Shown here in pieces: positions 42,463-48,776 of a stretch of 48,776 nt of DNA. The notes below the pieces were generated by a model. That model did not search any database, was not told where the DNA came from, and saw only the letters and a list, made by a program, of their open reading frames with translations. The stretch spans positions 1 to 48,776 of the forward strand of contig CALWTI010000003.1 of NCBI GenBank assembly GCA_944384425.1, in the 5' to 3' direction. The translations under genes and the position numbers were made by a program. The stretch's first letter is position 1; each line of letters begins with the position of its first letter. This DNA is from an uncultured Clostridia bacterium (GTDB lineage: Bacteria; Bacillota; Clostridia; Christensenellales; UBA1242).

Positions 42463-43422
42463 ATGAAAAATCAAATTTTTTCTTTTGATAAAGCGTATAT
42501 TGAAACTTTTGCAAGAGGCGTAAGTTATTCATATGTTGAAAATGCTTATAGCATTTTTCTTGATATTTTAGATGAATCAATGCAAGCTATCACGAAATTT
42601 CGACCTGTTGTAACAGACTATAATTGCCAAATAGTAAATGAATGTTTAAACGATGCACAGCTTCAAAATTCAACACTTGATATTTTTATGAATATAAAAT
42701 CTCCACAACTTGAGCTTGGCTTAGTTAAACTAAACAAAAACTATATAAAAAAATGGTTTAACAAGTTAAAATTGGCATGGTCAAGCAATAAAAAACCAAA
42801 GAAAAAAAGATGGTGGCAAAGAAAAAATAAAACAAAAACCGACAAAAATGACGAAATTAAAATAGGCGAGAAATATGATTTTCAGGCATTTAAGAAACAA
42901 TTGATGCTTGAACTAGCAAAAAGATTTACACCAAAAACAACAATATATGTGTCAAGTTATGGTTTGCTTGTTCTTTGTAGCGAAGATTTGGGCATGGACA
43001 TAAATCTTTTTATATGTTTTTCAAATGGTGAAAAATACACTTTATTCAATGAGCTGACAATGAACTTGACTTACATTGAATTTAAAGATAGAGAAAAAAA
43101 TATTCACACAAAAAGATTAAGTACAAATGATAATTTTGTAAAAGCGCTTAGAATTTTCAATGGTTTGTATAGAAATATTTATTCAAAGCCATTAAATCAA
43201 ATTTTGCTAGAAAGTGTTTTGTATAATTGCCCAGATGAATTATTTGAAAACAATGCTTATGATATGTTTATAAAACTTATAAATTTTATAAATGTAAGTG
43301 CTATGCAAACTTTTAAATCAATAACAGATGACGAAACTTCAATAATAAAAAACAATTTAATACCACAAAGCGAAATTTATGATTTTGTGAACTTTTTAAA
43401 GAATTTGGCAAAATTACTATAA
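42463..43422 (+). CDS. Orphan 319-aa protein, possibly a degenerate nucleotidyltransferase fold with a polybasic insertion
   Basis: No SD. TTGACT-18-TATTAT ends 6 nt before the ATG, so the mRNA is possibly leaderless. Carries a KKPKKKRWWQRKNKTK insert. The C-terminal LLESVLYNCPDELF resembles NTase-family helices. Confidence 0.6.
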   Translation: MKNQIFSFDKAYIETFARGVSYSYVENAYSIFLDILDESMQAITKFRPVVTDYNCQIVNECLNDAQLQNSTLDIFMNIKSPQLELGLVKLNKNYIKKWFNKLKLAWSSNKKPKKKRWWQRKNKTKTDKNDEIKIGEKYDFQAFKKQLMLELAKRFTPKTTIYVSSYGLLVLCSEDLGMDINLFICFSNGEKYTLFNELTMNLTYIEFKDREKNIHTKRLSTNDNFVKALRIFNGLYRNIYSKPLNQILLESVLYNCPDELFENNAYDMFIKLINFINVSAMQTFKSITDDETSIIKNNLIPQSEIYDFVNFLKNLAKLL

Positions 43423-43445: not shown

Positions 43446-43473
43446 TATTCGCAAAAGCTGTCTTTTGTGAATA
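43446..43473. promoter_or_regulatory. dif-like 11-6-11 recombination site, left prophage junction
   Basis: TATTCGCAAAA-GCTGTC-TTTTGTGAATA; arms are 10/11 inverted repeats; identity with the copy at 48684 begins within the spacer. Confidence 0.6.
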
Positions 43474-43538
43474 TTTAAACATCTTTGACTGTATCAATGT
43501 AGTTTTCGAGCACTATTCTCATCAAATCGCTTGTTTTT
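43462..43538. repeat. Direct repeat, left copy (identical to 48700-48776)
   Basis: 77/77 identity at an offset of exactly 5,238 bp; the right copy is cut by the window end. Confidence 0.95.
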
Positions 43539-43618
43539 CTACGTTTTTCGCTTGCTAGTTGCTTGAAATTGTCTATTGTTTCTTGTTTTAGTCTAATACC
43601 ACAAAATACTTTTTGCAT
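43475..43618 (-). CDS. Ribbon-helix-helix (CopG/Arc-like) DNA-binding protein, 47 aa
   Basis: MQKVFCGIRLKQETIDNFKQLASEKRRKTSDLMRIVLENYIDTVKDV. Strand-helix-helix pattern; aaggagg SD 7 nt upstream; below the ORF-track cutoff. Confidence 0.75.
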   Translation of the reverse strand: MQKVFCGIRLKQETIDNFKQLASEKRRKTSDLMRIVLENYIDTVKDV

Positions 43619-43657
43619 TTATATACCTCCTTTTAATTAAATTTATTTGTTTAATTT

Positions 43658-43692
43658 TGTTAAACATTTTAACTATATATCATTGTTTAACA
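43658..43692. promoter_or_regulatory. Two TGTTWAACA palindromes in the RHH promoter region
   Basis: tgttaaaca at 43658-66 (inside GTTAAAcatTTTAAC) and tgtttaaca at 43684-92; a third copy lies at 48673-81. Confidence 0.5.
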
Positions 43693-43906
43693 TTTTGCCA
43701 ACAGTTTTTTCAAAAAATTTTGTTTGTTGCTCCCCTGCCCTACCCTAATAGTATAGCGCTTGCGCGTGGGGTATGGGGTTATTGACCCCATTAAAGCCCC
43801 AAATAACGCATTTTTAGAGCCTAGAACGAACGAAACGAACGCGGACGAGTAGTTATATACCCTCAACACTCTTTCGTGTGTTTATGAGCCTAAAAAAAGG
43901 CAAAGC

Positions 43907-44956
43907 TTAGTTTTTTCGCTTCGCCTTTTTAATTCTCTCACGTATGATATCCTCTTTTTGCATTAAATATTGCTTTTCTGTCAAGCTTGTGTTTTTTAAC
44001 ACCTTTTCTCTGTTCCATTTTGCCATAAATTTGCGCTGTTCTTTTATCTCTTCGATTTTCTCTGGGTTTTCTAGTTCGTATAACAAATCAAAATATCTTG
44101 GTGGCTTCGCTGATCTTACATTGCCCTTTCCGTCAGATAAGAAAATTTCGTCACTTTCATATATCAAGTCTTTGTTTTTTTCAAAGTAATTTTTGCCAAT
44201 GCCCGGCTTTCTTGACATTCTGACGAATTCAGGCACAAGCCCTTGCTTTTTATACCACTCTGCATCAATTCCCTGTTGTTTCTTCATAACATATCTAGCA
44301 GTATATGCGCAAGTTTCCCAACTTAACTTGCCAATAGATATTATGCCATTGCCCCAAAGTTCTTCTATGGCTTTAGATGTAAATATCTGGTCTTCTTGAA
44401 AATTCTTAAACATTGGTTTTTTGTCTGGAATAGGCATGTTGAATATCAACGCGTGATAGTGTGGCCTTTTTGTTTTGTCGCCATACTCTCCACATGCATA
44501 AAATCTTATGCCTGGGTTTGTATCTGTCTTTTTCCATCCGTATGTATACTCCCAATGCCGTCGCAACCGTTTAAAAAAGTTTTGCAAGTCCTTGGGCTGT
44601 AAAGTTCCCTTTATTGACTTTTCCCCGGTTTCTTTGTCAACATGTTCGACAGTGTGCAGATGTGCATCATCATAAGTGAGAGTTACAAAGTAATTTTCTT
44701 TCCACTGTTTAGCTTCTAGCATACATCTGTTGGCCCACGTCTTGGCATAGTCCATCCGACATCCAAGGCACTTACCACAAGGAACTTTAACTACTCTTTT
44801 TTCGAGCCAATCGTCAGTGATTTTTTCTCCGTAATAGTATTCTGCAACTATTAGCTCTGATGCTATTTTGCTTTCCGTTGTTATTATTAGCTTTTTCTTG
44901 CCACTTGGAAGAGTTAGCCCGGTATCACGCATAAGTAATGGATGAAAGCATGTCAC
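43907..44956 (-). CDS. Microviridae replication initiation protein (VP4/A-like, HUH)
   Basis: CGKCLGCR, YFVTLTYD, RPHYHALIF (HUH) and YTARYVMKK motifs; GTG start after ggagg. Confidence 0.92.
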   Translation of the reverse strand: MTCFHPLLMRDTGLTLPSGKKKLIITTESKIASELIVAEYYYGEKITDDWLEKRVVKVPCGKCLGCRMDYAKTWANRCMLEAKQWKENYFVTLTYDDAHLHTVEHVDKETGEKSIKGTLQPKDLQNFFKRLRRHWEYTYGWKKTDTNPGIRFYACGEYGDKTKRPHYHALIFNMPIPDKKPMFKNFQEDQIFTSKAIEELWGNGIISIGKLSWETCAYTARYVMKKQQGIDAEWYKKQGLVPEFVRMSRKPGIGKNYFEKNKDLIYESDEIFLSDGKGNVRSAKPPRYFDLLYELENPEKIEEIKEQRKFMAKWNREKVLKNTSLTEKQYLMQKEDIIRERIKKAKRKN

Positions 44957-44985
44957 GTTTTCCTCCTTTTAAGATTAATCAAAAT

Positions 44986-45049
44986 GTCGACGTGATCGTC
45001 GACGTTGAGCTCAGCACAAATACTATTACTTGATTATATTTGTGCTGAG
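44986..45049. other. Two perfect hairpins in the VP2-VP4 intergenic region
   Basis: gtcgacg-tgat-cgtcgac (44986-45003); ctcagcacaaata-14 nt-tatttgtgctgag (45010-45049). Confidence 0.8.
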
Positions 45050-45063
45050 TGACACAAAATTGC

Positions 45064-45507
45064 TTATTTTAGCAATTTTAACAAACTGATTGCTGTGTTT
45101 ACAATGCTTGTTGGACTGTCTTGTTTTTTGCCGTTTGTGCTTGCAATACTTTTGACAAGTCCCGCGGCTGCATTAATGTTGTTAGCAAGTGATGCGCCAT
45201 GATTATTATTATTAGTGAATGCATTATTTCCACTTGCTGCCATTCCTGTTGGTGTGCTTGCGCCACCCTGTTGGAAGGCAAGCGCCGGGTTAAGCCCGGC
45301 CGCTTCCATGTCTTTAATTGCCCGTTGATATGATGTGTTGCTCATGTATTCTTCCCACTGTCTTTGTTTAAGCGCTTCTTGTGCGTTGAATTGGCGTGTT
45401 ATTTCTGCTTGTTCGGCATTGTACTGCCTTTCTTTTGCTGCTGTTCCAAAGCCTAGCCAATCCTTTATGTTTTCCCACGTACCTTGATTTTGATAGTTAA
45501 ACTCCAT
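45064..45507 (-). CDS. Microviridae DNA pilot/minor capsid protein (VP2-like, short)
   Basis: NTSYQRAIKDMEAAGLNPALAF motif typical of VP2; G/A/N-rich C-terminal half. Confidence 0.85.
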   Translation of the reverse strand: MEFNYQNQGTWENIKDWLGFGTAAKERQYNAEQAEITRQFNAQEALKQRQWEEYMSNTSYQRAIKDMEAAGLNPALAFQQGGASTPTGMAASGNNAFTNNNNHGASLANNINAAAGLVKSIASTNGKKQDSPTSIVNTAISLLKLLK

Positions 45508-45517
45508 AAATCACCTC

Positions 45518-47290
45518 TTAATTATGGTCAATTAGTCCTGGGATGCTGTACATTGGCATTGGCCTTGCTGCTTTTATTGAAAAGTAGAAGTCGCATGTAA
45601 ATTGGTCACTTACTGTACTTTGTACTGCCAATGTTTGGTCAATTGCTTCTGTTCCCTCGTCGTTAAATTCTTGGCTTAATGTAGGCAATGTTTCAAATTC
45701 TAGTCCGTAGTGCCAAATATTTCCATTTTTTTCCGCATTACTTCGTAGTTGACCTGTGATCAAGTTTGGGTTATATCTGTATTCTGCCCATGCCTCCTGG
45801 TAGCCGAACACTTCATTGTCTTTATTATTGTCTTCTTCTGTTTTTTGACTTCCTGCTTGAGTTATGTAAAGTTCTTTGTTTAATATAGGTTGTTCCCCAA
45901 TGTTTGCTAATGCTGGCCAATAATAGTCAAATCTTCTAGTCCTTGACCAAAGTTTGTTAATGCCTTGTTGGTAACTATTTACAACTCTTACACATGCTAG
46001 TCCAATTATGAACCCGTGCTCAGTGAAAGATTTTGTGAAGCTTCGATTACTCCCGGCAGTGTTTGAAAATGCTGCAGCATTTCCTTGTGGTGAATTTTCT
46101 GTACCTTCGCTTGTTTGTAGGACTTGCATCATGTTTATTGGACAACGTTTTCCGCCCAGGTACTCCGGCCTTTGTTGGCGCGCATCTGCTGACGTTACCC
46201 CGAAATTGCTTTTAATAATTTCGATATATCTAGTTCCTCCGCGCGCATCTTTTTCGAGTTGTCTTTGTACAGCAAAGGCAAGACGTATGTCATTTATGTT
46301 AATTGCTGTTGCATTTGTTAGGTCGGCTATCATACCGCTTAGATTTGGATCTGTTGTTAGTCCCATTATTGTTGGATTTGATGGCGCTGCGTTTACTGAT
46401 GTTATTTTATCTCCTGTGTTCTTTCTAGTTTCTTCGCTTGATGCATATAATCCTGTTATGCCGTTTTTGGCTGGCTCTGTTACTCCTTCTAGTATATTAT
46501 TTGTTGTTGCAGTTGCTGCTACTAAGTTCCATGTGTAGTCATTTACAGTTGATGCCCCTGGTGCTTCAAGTCCTATTGCTGTCCCATTTCCTATTACGGG
46601 AGCACTGTCTCCAAGTGGTATTGTTATTGGGCTACCTTTTTGTGGTTCAGGCAGTGCACTTGTAAAGTAGTCGTGTAATTTTGCCACCTTCAAACATTTT
46701 GTAGTTCCTGCTTGTACATATTTCGCTGTAGGGAATGCTATTATGTTGCCATCCACATTTTTTTGCACGTCTAGTGGTGCAATTATATTTTGGTTTCTGA
46801 ACCATTCATTGTAGATTAGTACATATCCTCTGAATGGTAGAGCGTTAACTCCTTTTTCTGGTCTTGTAATGTTTTGTAATCCTATGCACTTTTTTGTTGG
46901 AATTCCCATGTGGTCGCCGATGCTACCCGGTTCATATGTTGTTATTATTGTTGGTATCTGATATTCTGTCTCTTCTTCGTCCCATTCTCCCGTTTTATTT
47001 TCGCCCATAAATTCTGGCCAATGGTCCCAAACTAATCTGTTTGGTACAAAGAAATAATATAGGTCCAAGTATGCTGTATCCATAACCGGTTTTAATGGCG
47101 TATTCATACGAATAACATATCCGGTATCAATGTTGAATGTGTCCCCCGGTAATATTTCTTGTACGAGAATTGGGACTAATTCACCCTCATTAAAAGTTGT
47201 TTTGTGACCGTGACTTAGGTCGAATATGCTTCTTTTTATGTCCACATTTGGTAGTTTGCTAAAATGTAGTTCTGTGTTTCTATTCGCCAT
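45518..47290 (-). CDS. Microviridae major capsid protein (VP1/F)
   Basis: FSKLPNVDIKRSIFDLSHGHKTTFNEGELVPILVQEILPGDTF N-terminus; 590 aa; aggagg SD. Confidence 0.93.
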   Translation of the reverse strand: MANRNTELHFSKLPNVDIKRSIFDLSHGHKTTFNEGELVPILVQEILPGDTFNIDTGYVIRMNTPLKPVMDTAYLDLYYFFVPNRLVWDHWPEFMGENKTGEWDEEETEYQIPTIITTYEPGSIGDHMGIPTKKCIGLQNITRPEKGVNALPFRGYVLIYNEWFRNQNIIAPLDVQKNVDGNIIAFPTAKYVQAGTTKCLKVAKLHDYFTSALPEPQKGSPITIPLGDSAPVIGNGTAIGLEAPGASTVNDYTWNLVAATATTNNILEGVTEPAKNGITGLYASSEETRKNTGDKITSVNAAPSNPTIMGLTTDPNLSGMIADLTNATAININDIRLAFAVQRQLEKDARGGTRYIEIIKSNFGVTSADARQQRPEYLGGKRCPINMMQVLQTSEGTENSPQGNAAAFSNTAGSNRSFTKSFTEHGFIIGLACVRVVNSYQQGINKLWSRTRRFDYYWPALANIGEQPILNKELYITQAGSQKTEEDNNKDNEVFGYQEAWAEYRYNPNLITGQLRSNAEKNGNIWHYGLEFETLPTLSQEFNDEGTEAIDQTLAVQSTVSDQFTCDFYFSIKAARPMPMYSIPGLIDHN

Positions 47291-47717
47291 CTTTTACCTC
47301 CTGTTGTTTTGGTTGTTCGATTTTATAAGCTTTTAAAATATCTTGCTGAGTTATTTGCTCCCCGCTTATTATTTTTTCTTTTAGTTCTTCTGGCATAGCC
47401 TGGTATTTTTGCCCGGCATTTTGCGCCATTGCGTTTAGGTCATTAATGTTATTTGGTGTTATGGTGCTGTCACCGTAGTTAAGTGCTGGTTTTTTGTAGA
47501 GTACTCCCAAATCTCCATTTTTGAAGCGTTCAAGGATGTTGTATATCATTGTGTCTTCTTTGCCCTCTTGAATTTTGGCGTAAACGTTAACTTTGCCGGT
47601 TTCTTTGTAGTCAATTGACCCATCTTTGTTGGTTATGCGTTTAATTATTCTTCTAAATCCGTCTCCTGTTGCCCCTTTGCCTTGTTTTGGCGGATTTTGC
47701 ATTGTTAGAAATTTCAT
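47280..47717 (-). CDS. Microviridae internal scaffolding protein (VP3-like)
   Basis: Position upstream of and overlapping VP1; EDTMIYNILERFKNGD resembles the VP3 DINxIxxxFxKTG segment. Confidence 0.7.
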   Translation of the reverse strand: MKFLTMQNPPKQGKGATGDGFRRIIKRITNKDGSIDYKETGKVNVYAKIQEGKEDTMIYNILERFKNGDLGVLYKKPALNYGDSTITPNNINDLNAMAQNAGQKYQAMPEELKEKIISGEQITQQDILKAYKIEQPKQQEVKDGE

Positions 47718-47738
47718 GTTACTCTCCTTTTAAATTTC

Positions 47739-47858
47739 CTATAAATAAGCTCTTTCTATTGATTGTAGTATTCTGATTGCTTCAAGTGGTTTTATTTTGT
47801 TTTTAAATAGAATTTTTGTAATTTCTTCTATAATTTCAACTGCTTTTTTTTTATCCAT
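47739..47858 (-). CDS. Small phage ORF (39 aa), not in ORF track
   Basis: MDKKKAVEIIEEITKILFKNKIKPLEAIRILQSIERAYL; ATG directly follows the upstream stop; ggtgag SD. Confidence 0.5.
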   Translation of the reverse strand: MDKKKAVEIIEEITKILFKNKIKPLEAIRILQSIERAYL

Positions 47859-48116
47859 TTACTCACCTTCTTTTATAATAAAGTCATTTGCTTTAGCAAT
47901 ATATTTTGGTTGGGTTGCTGTAATCTCTCCTGTCTGGTCGTTGTACTCGCCCATTGTCCACAGCTCTTTGTCGTCTGGATAAGTGTTGACTTGGTTTGGC
48001 TGTTGTGCTTGTGCCATTCCGCTAAATGCTCTTACTGCTACCGCGTCATTTTGCATCACAAAAGGTGCTGTAAATCCTATTTTTGTATCTTTTATTGCAT
48101 ATATTTTACTTATCAT
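47859..48116 (-). CDS. Conserved-looking small microvirus protein (85 aa; VP5-like?)
   Basis: IYAIKDTKIGFTAPFVMQNDAVAVRAF N-terminus resembles small gokushovirus-type proteins; gaggag SD. Confidence 0.7.
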   Translation of the reverse strand: MISKIYAIKDTKIGFTAPFVMQNDAVAVRAFSGMAQAQQPNQVNTYPDDKELWTMGEYNDQTGEITATQPKYIAKANDFIIKEGE

Positions 48117-48226
48117 TTTTTTATCTCCTCTATTTTTGTTTGATTTTTTAAAATGCCCTTTGGGTCTTTTTTCTTTAATATTTTTGGCTTGTAAATTTCT
48201 TCAAGCCATTTTTGAATTTTATTCAT
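48113..48226 (-). CDS. Small basic phage ORF (37 aa), not in ORF track
   Basis: MNKIQKWLEEIYKPKILKKKDPKGILKNQTKIEEIKK; ATGA overlap with the next gene; weak SD. Confidence 0.4.
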   Translation of the reverse strand: MNKIQKWLEEIYKPKILKKKDPKGILKNQTKIEEIKK

Positions 48227-48326
48227 TTTTTAATCTCTAGTTATAGTCTTATGCCTCCCCTGTTAATATTAGGGTCAACATTGACTTTTTTTGTTTTGCG
48301 TGCTGTTCTTGAAAAAATTTCGCTAT

Positions 48327-48638
48327 CTATTCGTTTTCTTGTTTTACTGCGCATCTTTCAATCTCCTTTTTTAAGTTTTTTTGAACTGATTTTGTTATGT
48401 ACGTTCCTAGGTCGTCTTTTATTGCGTCTAGTACGAAATTAGTTATTCTTGTTGTACTTGCTGATGTTCCTAGCAAGTTCTTTGCTTGTTTAATGTAAGT
48501 AGGCAATGTCTTTGCTATGTTTGCTACTGTTTCAAGTGTGTTTTTGTTTTTTAGTTTTATCATAATAATTAAGTATACAAACATACTAAGTGCGTTAATA
48601 GCGACTGTCCCTATACTTACCCAATTTTCAATACTCAT
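48327..48638 (-). CDS. Phage single-TM membrane protein (103 aa)
   Basis: Strong aggagg SD; N-terminal TM IGTVAINALSMFVYLIIMI; first gene after the att site. Confidence 0.75.
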   Translation of the reverse strand: MSIENWVSIGTVAINALSMFVYLIIMIKLKNKNTLETVANIAKTLPTYIKQAKNLLGTSASTTRITNFVLDAIKDDLGTYITKSVQKNLKKEIERCAVKQENE

Positions 48639-48683
48639 ATTACCTCCTTTTTTGTTAAATATTGAATAACATTGTTAAACAAA

Positions 48684-48711
48684 TATTTTAAAAAGTTGCC
48701 TTTTGTGAATA
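48684..48711. promoter_or_regulatory. dif-like 11-6-11 site, second copy (attP-like or attR)
   Basis: TATTTTAAAAA-GTTGCC-TTTTGTGAATA. Right arm is identical to the 43446 site; left arm matches 8/11; spacer differs at 2 of 6 positions. Confidence 0.55.
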
Positions 48712-48776
48712 TTTAAACATCTTTGACTGTATCAATGTAGTTTTCGAGCACTATTCTCATCAAATCGCTTGTTTTT
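48700..48776. repeat. Direct repeat, right copy (identical to 43462-43538), truncated by the window end
   Basis: Covers the 3' 62 nt of an RHH-gene copy plus 15 nt downstream. Confidence 0.95.

Follow-up and report, generated by a model that had tools for sequence, protein, structure and literature searches.

A temperate microvirus, a small single-stranded-DNA phage without an integrase of its own, occupies the chromosomal dimer-resolution (dif) site of an uncultured Clostridia bacterium from chicken gut, and the exact repeat with which the 48,776-nt stretch of DNA analysed here (the window) ends is probably a product of assembly. In the reading that we favour, the sample contained the integrated prophage plus circular copies of the same phage, and the contig re-enters the cycle and stops one assembler k-mer (77) later. 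The 5,238-bp period of the repeat is exactly one genome of an integrase-less gokushovirus-like microvirus. The interpretation offered in an earlier note on this DNA is partly supported.

Terminal repeat and phage genome

Comparison of the window with itself reproduces the perfect direct repeat that the earlier note had described as reaching the window end: 43462–43538 equals 48700–48776 at 77 of 77 positions, with a spacing of 5,238 bp. The last base of the second copy is the last base of the window, and the right edge of the identity is fixed by the window end only. With a per-base match probability of 0.276, about 1e-34 chance repeats of 77 nt are expected in the window. To the left of the repeat there is a weaker match of 11/16 over 16 nt (43446–43461 against 48684–48699), and exact identity begins at 43462 because a 28-bp dif-like site carries a spacer mismatch at 43461 (T versus C). 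Only 12 nt of the repeat (43462–43473) belong to a recombination site, while the other 65 nt lie in the phage genome, which is read again there. The 77 bp were correctly called far longer than a Xer core in the earlier note, which nevertheless missed the genuine 28-bp Xer/dif-type core at the left edge of the repeat (43446–43473 and 48684–48711). It also placed the 3′ end of a ribbon-helix-helix (RHH) gene in the repeat, and the stop codon and about 20 codons of this 47-aa ORF indeed lie there; the second RHH copy that it expected to follow does so only as the same phage genome, in a circle or a tandem unit, read again.

Table 1. Location and assignment of the repeat copies, attachment sites, phage genes and host recombinase gene in the window
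Feature	Position	Strand	Remarks
Host Xer-family tyrosine recombinase, 341 aa	41359–42384	−	PF00589; ∼1.06 kb from the site, 5′ end facing the site
attL	43446–43473	.	Hybrid TATTCGCAAAA GCTGTC TTTTGTGAATA; left arm and spacer host-type, right arm phage-type (T at 43468)
Complete microvirus genome unit, 5,238 nt	43462–48699	−	0 mismatches to the closed circle L002; all genes on the minus strand
Repeat copy 1	43462–43538	.	Last spacer base, 11-nt right arm and first 65 nt of the phage genome (RHH gene 3′ end)
RHH-like protein, 47 aa	43475–43618	−	Weak matches: Arc-like repressor (PHROG, E = 4.5e-4), RelB-like antitoxin, ORF56 copy control (NCBIfam)
Rolling-circle replication initiator (Rep, VP4-like)	43907–44956	−	PF23343, E = 3.7e-19; phrog_942, E = 1.3e-114
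DNA pilot protein (VP2-like)	45064–45507	−	PHROG pilot-protein families, E down to 2.5e-29
Major capsid protein VP1/F	45518–47290	−	PF02305, E = 7e-154, full length
Internal scaffolding protein (VP3, Chp2-type)	47280–47717	−	PF09675, E = 1.1e-15
ORF5/VP5-like DNA-binding protein	47859–48116	−	PF20577, E = 2.8e-20; phrog_1670
Hydrophobic phage ORF, 103 aa	48327–48638	−	No family match; phage gene nearest attR
attP-type phage–phage junction	48684–48711	.	TATTTTAAAAA GTTGCC TTTTGTGAATA; arms 8/11 and 10/11 to the host dif; also closes the L002 circle
Repeat copy 2	48700–48776	.	Re-entry into the same phage genome; truncated at exactly 77 nt by the window end

The seven phage ORFs (47–590 aa) were compared with Pfam, and subsets of them with PHROGs and NCBIfam, and none matches a recombinase. 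The genes on which a gokushovirus-like assignment rests (F/VP1 capsid, VP4, VP3, VP2 and ORF5/VP5) are all found, and the circle of 5,238 nt falls within ∼4.3–6.3 kb. No external scaffold or spike gene was found in the phage, the ORFs beyond the matched ones being small and without match. The closest deposited phage capsid is 52% identical and comes from rodent faecal viromes, with a host that is not known. As a single query the capsid retrieved no close relative from the genome or viral contig collections, and an alignment query was required. A search for contigs that encode the 103-aa ORF gave the closed circle L002 described below and no other, and thus none with attR.

TTGTTWAACA palindromes occur at 43657–43666, 43683–43692 and 48672–48682, within the two short intergenic stretches of the phage that border the RHH gene and attP. 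Elsewhere in the 48.8-kb window the motif is found in one place; the six strand-matches compare with 1.9 expected, and 2 of 100 shuffles reach six. It is possible that these motifs are operator sites of the RHH protein. A GC-rich segment at 43725–43800 (cccctgccctaccc...gcgcgtggggtatggggt...) lies in the Rep–RHH intergenic region of a phage that is otherwise AT-rich. It contains a GGGGT...ACCCC hairpin and has no Rfam match, a scan of 40–48.8 kb having returned tRNA-Thr only, and the fold of the Rep–RHH intergenic region is not significant (z = −1.66). This segment could be a replication or packaging signal.

Attachment sites and the host dif locus

The empty target site (attB) is seen in two phage-free contigs of the same species, L003 and L004; L003 is 286 kb long and matches the host flank with 98.1% identity across 10.5 kb. 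The empty site is a 28-bp dif-type site of 11-6-11 format (11-nt inverted arms, 6-nt spacer) that reads TATTCGCAAAA GCTGTC TTTTGCGAATA, with perfectly inverted arms, and is followed by the host right flank GTTTAGCAAAATTAAAAAG... / GTTTAGCAAAATTAAAAAGTTATTTTTTAC. Comparison with this empty site and with the site of the phage (attP) identifies the left junction as a hybrid of the two (attL; Table 1). The attP site lies in a 74-nt intergenic region of the phage circle, and a site scoring at least 18/22 is obtained in 1 of 300 phage shuffles. The spacers of attB and attP differ at two of six positions, and attL retains the host spacer.

The right junction (attR) is provided by a 331-nt contig of depth 5 from run X2. 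It matches the phage over 48676–48711 only, with one mismatch, and then continues exactly into the host right flank of the empty site. These are Logan contigs with k = 31, and 48676–48706 is the first 31-mer able to include 48706, the sole right-arm position that differs between attP (T) and attB (C). As the contig starts precisely at 48676, attR should read TATTTTAAAAA GTTGCC TTTTGCGAATA; its junction to the host flank is read directly, while the arm base at 48706 is deduced from this k-mer logic. With the host spacer in attL and the phage spacer in attR, the crossover is therefore placed between 43461 and 43468, at the border of right arm and spacer. The hybrid sites are equally well explained by a single strand-exchange pair that replication then resolves, the route known from the Vibrio phages that are integrative mobile elements exploiting Xer (IMEX), and by a full reaction followed by segregation of the heteroduplex spacer.

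These junctions place the integrated phage exactly at the host chromosomal dif. The IMEX features found are the lack of an own recombinase, a dif-like site on the element, insertion at dif and reciprocal hybrid attL and attR sites. Direct repeats that flank a prophage are normally att cores, and the earlier note had considered such a long core as an alternative, in which the 77 bp or more were duplicated on integration. The empty site and the attR contig refute this reading, whose probability we consider negligible: the empty site and the junctions have only the 28-bp dif in common, in attR the host sequence takes over directly behind 48711, and the empty site lacks the phage gene whose coding end makes up the other 65 nt of the repeat.

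It is also very unlikely that the phage exists only as a free circle that was misjoined to the host through a shared dif-like k-mer. Metagenome assemblers do misjoin at shared repeats, and the host dif and attP have an arm in common at 10 of 11 positions, but the exact stretch shared by attB and attP is only 6 nt long (C TTTTG), far under any k. Moreover, three runs from two studies each yielded attL in an independent assembly (contig L001 in X2, and X3 and X4), attR was assembled in X2, the two hybrids are reciprocal as expected from a single crossover, and related phages are embedded in host contigs of 36–157 kb.

Pattern searches returned no match to a right-flank 30-mer or to the left flank plus site in species-representative genomes, none to attP or attL in the viral contig collection, and none to the right arm plus right flank in JGI metagenome contigs. 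The attP spacer GTTGCC (48695–48700 in the window) is identical to the dif spacer of L053 (3262–3289), a related host species (BRZ_KC__bin26) with 75% nucleotide identity to the host flank; the host in the window has the spacer GCTGTC. Possibly the phage is adapted to a host of the L053 type or came from one.

At least 119 GTDB species (L005–L123) have the pattern TATTCGCAAAA-N6-TTTTGYGAATA, with one occurrence per locus; among them are Christensenella, Lachnospiraceae, Oscillospiraceae, Defluviitaleaceae and many uncultured Clostridia. The spacer of the site is variable across the loci, mostly SYTGTS, and the polarity of the spacer relative to the xer gene follows a majority trend only. At 47 of the 71 loci that could be tested, GC skew changes from positive on the left of the site to negative on its right, and three loci have the opposite arrangement. 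In 63 of the 71 the skew is larger on the left than on the right (p = 1e-11), and 20 of 138 same-side control splits give the positive-to-negative pattern. The skew switch is also seen in the window and in L003, together with a flip of gene orientation at the site. Orthologs of the 341-aa recombinase (45–97% identity) lie 64–3,000 bp from the site in 57 loci, and their 5′ end faces the site in 52 of the 53 strong matches. Because the site is conserved and single-copy, lies at a GC-skew switch and is linked to a Xer gene that faces it, we take the target of the phage to be the host dif.

The 341-aa recombinase is the candidate catalyst of integration. Its best NCBIfam match is XerS (NF003462), over the full length, with 190 bits against a cutoff of 267. 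It stays below every curated Xer cutoff, the XerA, XerC and XerD models score similarly, and the nearest solved structures are XerA and XerD; this exact protein is not on record. The link between the recombinase gene and a site at a GC-skew switch, together with the perfectly symmetric arms, is reminiscent of single-recombinase dimer-resolution systems, namely XerS/difSL of streptococci and lactococci and XerH/difH. Assignment to XerS/difSL agrees in the gene adjacency at the terminus but fails on the score, which lies under the equivalog cutoff, and on the site sequence. difSL is 31 bp long and asymmetric, whereas the site described here has 28 bp, perfect symmetry and another sequence. No paper that describes this dif site was found, and a search on the site sequence gave unrelated papers only. 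Site and gene together look like an undescribed dif/Xer module in Clostridia.

The other host genes to the left of the phage encode an S1 protein, an SDR, tRNA-Thr and LexA. A 319-aa protein is encoded between the xer gene and dif (42463–43422, plus strand) and has homologs in 14 dif loci. It has weak similarity only, to a CD-NTase C-terminal domain and to an anti-phage nucleotidyltransferase (NF053871, E = 3e-4). A role in defence is conceivable for its gene, which lies next to the place where the phage integrates. In six other genomes a degenerate second dif-like site is observed 70–1,900 bp from the perfect dif (L041 1960, L094 5766, L113 7067, L073 3681, L097 1008 and L059 720), and these sites could mark small Xer-exploiting elements or remnants. 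The first 860 nt of the window are very A-rich (23% GC) and non-coding, and contain about ten degenerate copies of a 40–47-nt unit at spacings that are mostly multiples of ∼10 nt.

Probable circular copies, possible tandem copies and the probable end of a contig

Run X2 is a chicken-gut metagenome that contains 95% of the query words, and X1 and X2 are from one sample. In X1 the phage is assembled as a separate contig (L002) of 5,268 nt, i.e. 5,238 nt plus a 30-nt (k − 1) terminal overlap, which as a circle matches 43462–48699 without mismatch. It carries the same junction as the window at 48660–48739, and the joint in this run leads from 48699 to 43462, going back by 5238. Contig L001 from X2 carries attL, and attL, attR and attP are thus all present in one biological sample. 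The attP junction is found in X1 and in the window and not in X2, and attL and attR are found in X2 and not in X1. No attB-type loose end was found among the sample contigs placed on the window.

The mean k-mer depth in this sample is 18.5 and 14.7 for the phage contigs, 2.1–3.7 for the host-flank contigs and 5 for attR. The phage-to-host ratio, a check that the earlier note had named, is ∼3–7, a crude value given that depths and junctions are taken from assembled contigs, in which each depth is an average over a contig and a rare junction can go missing. The excess over the host flanks indicates that most phage genomes are not single integrated copies.

An array of at least two head-to-tail microvirus copies at dif would produce the same phage–phage junction. 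After a first integration, attL would be a near-perfect dif (21 of 22 arm positions, host spacer), and a second integration into it would give the exact attP that is seen at 48684–48711. Because this attP is identical in both cases, sequence alone cannot separate a tandem from a circle. The contig would then have broken at the second copy, as identical copies collapse in a de Bruijn graph. We regard a true tandem array, which the earlier note had listed first among its readings, as unlikely but as the one serious competitor. The required junction is present both in the window (48684–48776) and in X1 (48699 to 43462), a related phage–host pair has two units in tandem at its dif site (L125, see below), and tandem arrays are usual for Xer-integrated vibriophages. 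Microvirus concatemers are often found in assemblies (PMC9239249). On the other hand, a depth ratio of ∼3–7, crude as the depths are, would require a long array and is too high for a dimer, an isolated circular contig was assembled in X1, and circular forms routinely accompany integration in the best-studied analogue (PMC7062461). None of this evidence against an array is decisive.

A further proposal of the earlier note was a full prophage beside the remnant of an earlier copy, in which case identity would decay soon after 48776. Degenerate second dif-like sites near dif in other genomes (L041, L094, L113 and others) mean that remnants of Xer elements may exist in the clade. This arrangement is nevertheless highly improbable for the window, as the only joint detected in the sample (48699 to 43462) leads on through a complete and identical 5,238-nt genome, no deletion joints were seen among the sample contigs, and in the attR contig the host flank follows immediately on an intact phage end.

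We favour the integrated prophage accompanied by free circles. The host Xer recombinase, presumably the one encoded next to the site, would act on the dif mimic carried by the phage (attP) to integrate it, and the sampled DNA would comprise the integrated phage (attL and attR) together with an excess of circular copies (attP junction), either replicative form or excised genomes. We infer that the phage–phage junction stems from such circles rather than from an array because of the excess in depth, the isolated circular contig and the precedent of E. coli lysogens. Lysogens of E. coli gokushoviruses always contain circles, and XerCD keeps excising and reintegrating the phage (PMC7062461). In the de Bruijn graph the host-left edge would enter a 5.2-kb cycle from which a low-coverage edge exits to the host-right flank. 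The assembler would proceed from the host through attL into the phage, follow the attP branch of higher coverage and halt on re-entering the phage edge already used, leaving a terminal self-overlap of exactly one k-mer (77).

This is in agreement with the assembly wrap-around of a circular genome that the earlier note had also put forward, and which is the best supported of its readings: a closed circle of 5,238 nt has the identical junction, the phage is ∼3–7 times as deep as the host, and the repeat length is a standard assembler k. The usual largest k of SPAdes is 77, and SPAdes-style contig names are present for this host in the same collection. The window end is likely to be the end of a contig made with k = 77; the odds that an arbitrary cut would coincide exactly with a canonical k are of the order of 1 in 1,000. 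Cyclic de Bruijn paths are known to end in an exact repeat of standard k length with a period equal to the circle length, and L002 has the same signature with k − 1 = 30. The window differs from this case in that the cycle is joined to a 43-kb host path, and the contig end overlaps an internal position instead of the other end.

The phage contigs of X2 and X3 end at 48663 and 48670, several bases before the start of the attR contig at 48676. The gap between 48663 and 48676 exceeds what the attP/attR branch explains, and may be a contig-cleaning artefact or reflect a minor variant near the T-run at ∼48650. Runs X3 and X4 (study P2, 'synthetic metagenome', 2025) contain the same host flank, attL and phage at low and roughly equal depth. 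Their occurrence there suggests that a cultured lysogenic strain of the host exists.

Related phages and other Xer-exploiting systems

Related microviruses, with capsids that are 37–56% identical, are present in other Clostridia or Bacilli MAG contigs. In L051 a complete phage lies between two dif-type sites 5,193 nt apart; as in the window, one site is perfect and the outer arm of the other is degenerate. The sites of L127, a 157-kb contig, are 5,185 nt apart, and in L130 and L058 the phage adjoins a dif-type site. In the window the stop codon of the RHH ORF lies 1 nt from the att site, and RHH homologs likewise adjoin the att site in L127, beside one of its two sites, and in L128, a wrapped free genome in which the gene is next to attP. 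A tandem is found in L125 (6265–16674), a 36-kb rabbit-gut Clostridia MAG contig with two 97.9%-identical units and a period of ∼5,173 nt. The differences between these units cluster in the first ∼500 nt past each junction, and the array ends at a perfect-armed dif variant, TTTGCGCAAAA GCCTTC TTTTGCGCAAA. The leftmost junction has ∼45 nt in common with the stretch just before this variant, a hint that another copy or a remnant may lie further left. The dif mimic is absent from the four nearest deposited free microvirus genomes and is therefore specific to a lineage and not clade-wide. A lineage-specific dif mimic has likewise been reported for enterobacterial gokushoviruses (PMC7062461).

For E. 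coli gokushoviruses, integration through Xer/dif is established (PMC7062461), and it has been proposed for microviruses of Bacteroidetes (PMC3091885). The prophages of the E. coli enterogokushoviruses (EC6098; Kirchberger & Ochman, 2020, PMC7062461) resemble the one described here in being integrase-less and in carrying a non-coding 28-bp 11-6-11 dif mimic beside a gene end. On one side they are likewise bordered by a conserved dif and on the other by a phage dif that is more degenerate, and their circular and integrated forms coexist. They differ in the host, which is a Clostridia bacterium here, and in genome size (5.2 kb here versus 4.3–4.7 kb). Their dif is of the XerC/XerD type, whereas the site in the window has perfectly inverted arms of unrelated sequence and a single linked XerS-like gene. 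In our phage an RHH gene abuts attP, and the dependence of the phage on Xer is predicted from sequence.

The Bacteroidetes proviruses BMV1–7 (Alpavirinae; Krupovic & Forterre, 2011, PMC3091885) are equally integrase-less and are flanked by dif-like imperfect direct repeats, and host Xer was proposed to act on them. They belong to another microvirus lineage and host phylum, and evidence from GC skew at the terminus and from empty sites is available only here. The Vibrio IMEX phages (CTXφ, VGJφ and TLCφ) are ssDNA phages that integrate at dif via host Xer, with an attP spacer non-homologous to the dif spacer and a crossover at one spacer border, and their life cycle includes tandem arrays and circular replicative forms. 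Unlike the present phage they are filamentous Inoviridae that use XerC/XerD, and CTXφ integrates irreversibly through a folded ssDNA attP. The attP described here is an ordinary duplex-type 11-6-11 site, and since both junction sites stay dif-like, excision should be possible.

For hosts of Gram-positive lineage, only two isolate microvirus prophages had been reported by 2022, and assignments based on MAGs were distrusted as unreliable binning (PMC9239249). These two, in Erysipelatoclostridium and Mammaliicoccus sciuri (Kirchberger et al., 2022, PMC9239249), share integration in a Gram-positive-lineage host with our phage but come from other host orders. The host linkage is supported here by contigs with attL, with attR and with the empty site.

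The Clostridia microvirus works like the known Xer-exploiting systems, and every IMEX feature that can be tested in sequence was found. Gut Clostridia are an unusual host group for a prophage that hijacks Xer in this way. What it adds is a solid link to a Clostridia host and a dif/Xer module for which no description was found. Tentatively, and with more doubt than confidence, we propose that Clostridia possess an undescribed chromosome-dimer-resolution module, consisting of a 28-bp dif with perfectly palindromic arms (TATTCGCAAAA-N6-TTTTGCGAATA) and one linked XerS-like recombinase, and that it is exploited by a group of temperate microviruses of Gram-positive-lineage gut bacteria, whose conserved RHH gene abutting attP would possibly control lysogeny or Xer recombination.

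An exact repeat of 77 at a contig end, with the period of a small phage genome, is best read as an assembly signature and not as a giant att site. Beyond this, the window and its companion contigs provide a fully resolved set of attB, attP, attL and attR for a microvirus in a Clostridia host, where such host links are rare and distrusted (PMC9239249). They also identify a dif site and its linked Xer gene for a large set of gut Clostridia. This dif site could help to predict which hosts orphan gut microviruses infect, and to detect further Xer-exploiting elements in the genomes of these Clostridia.
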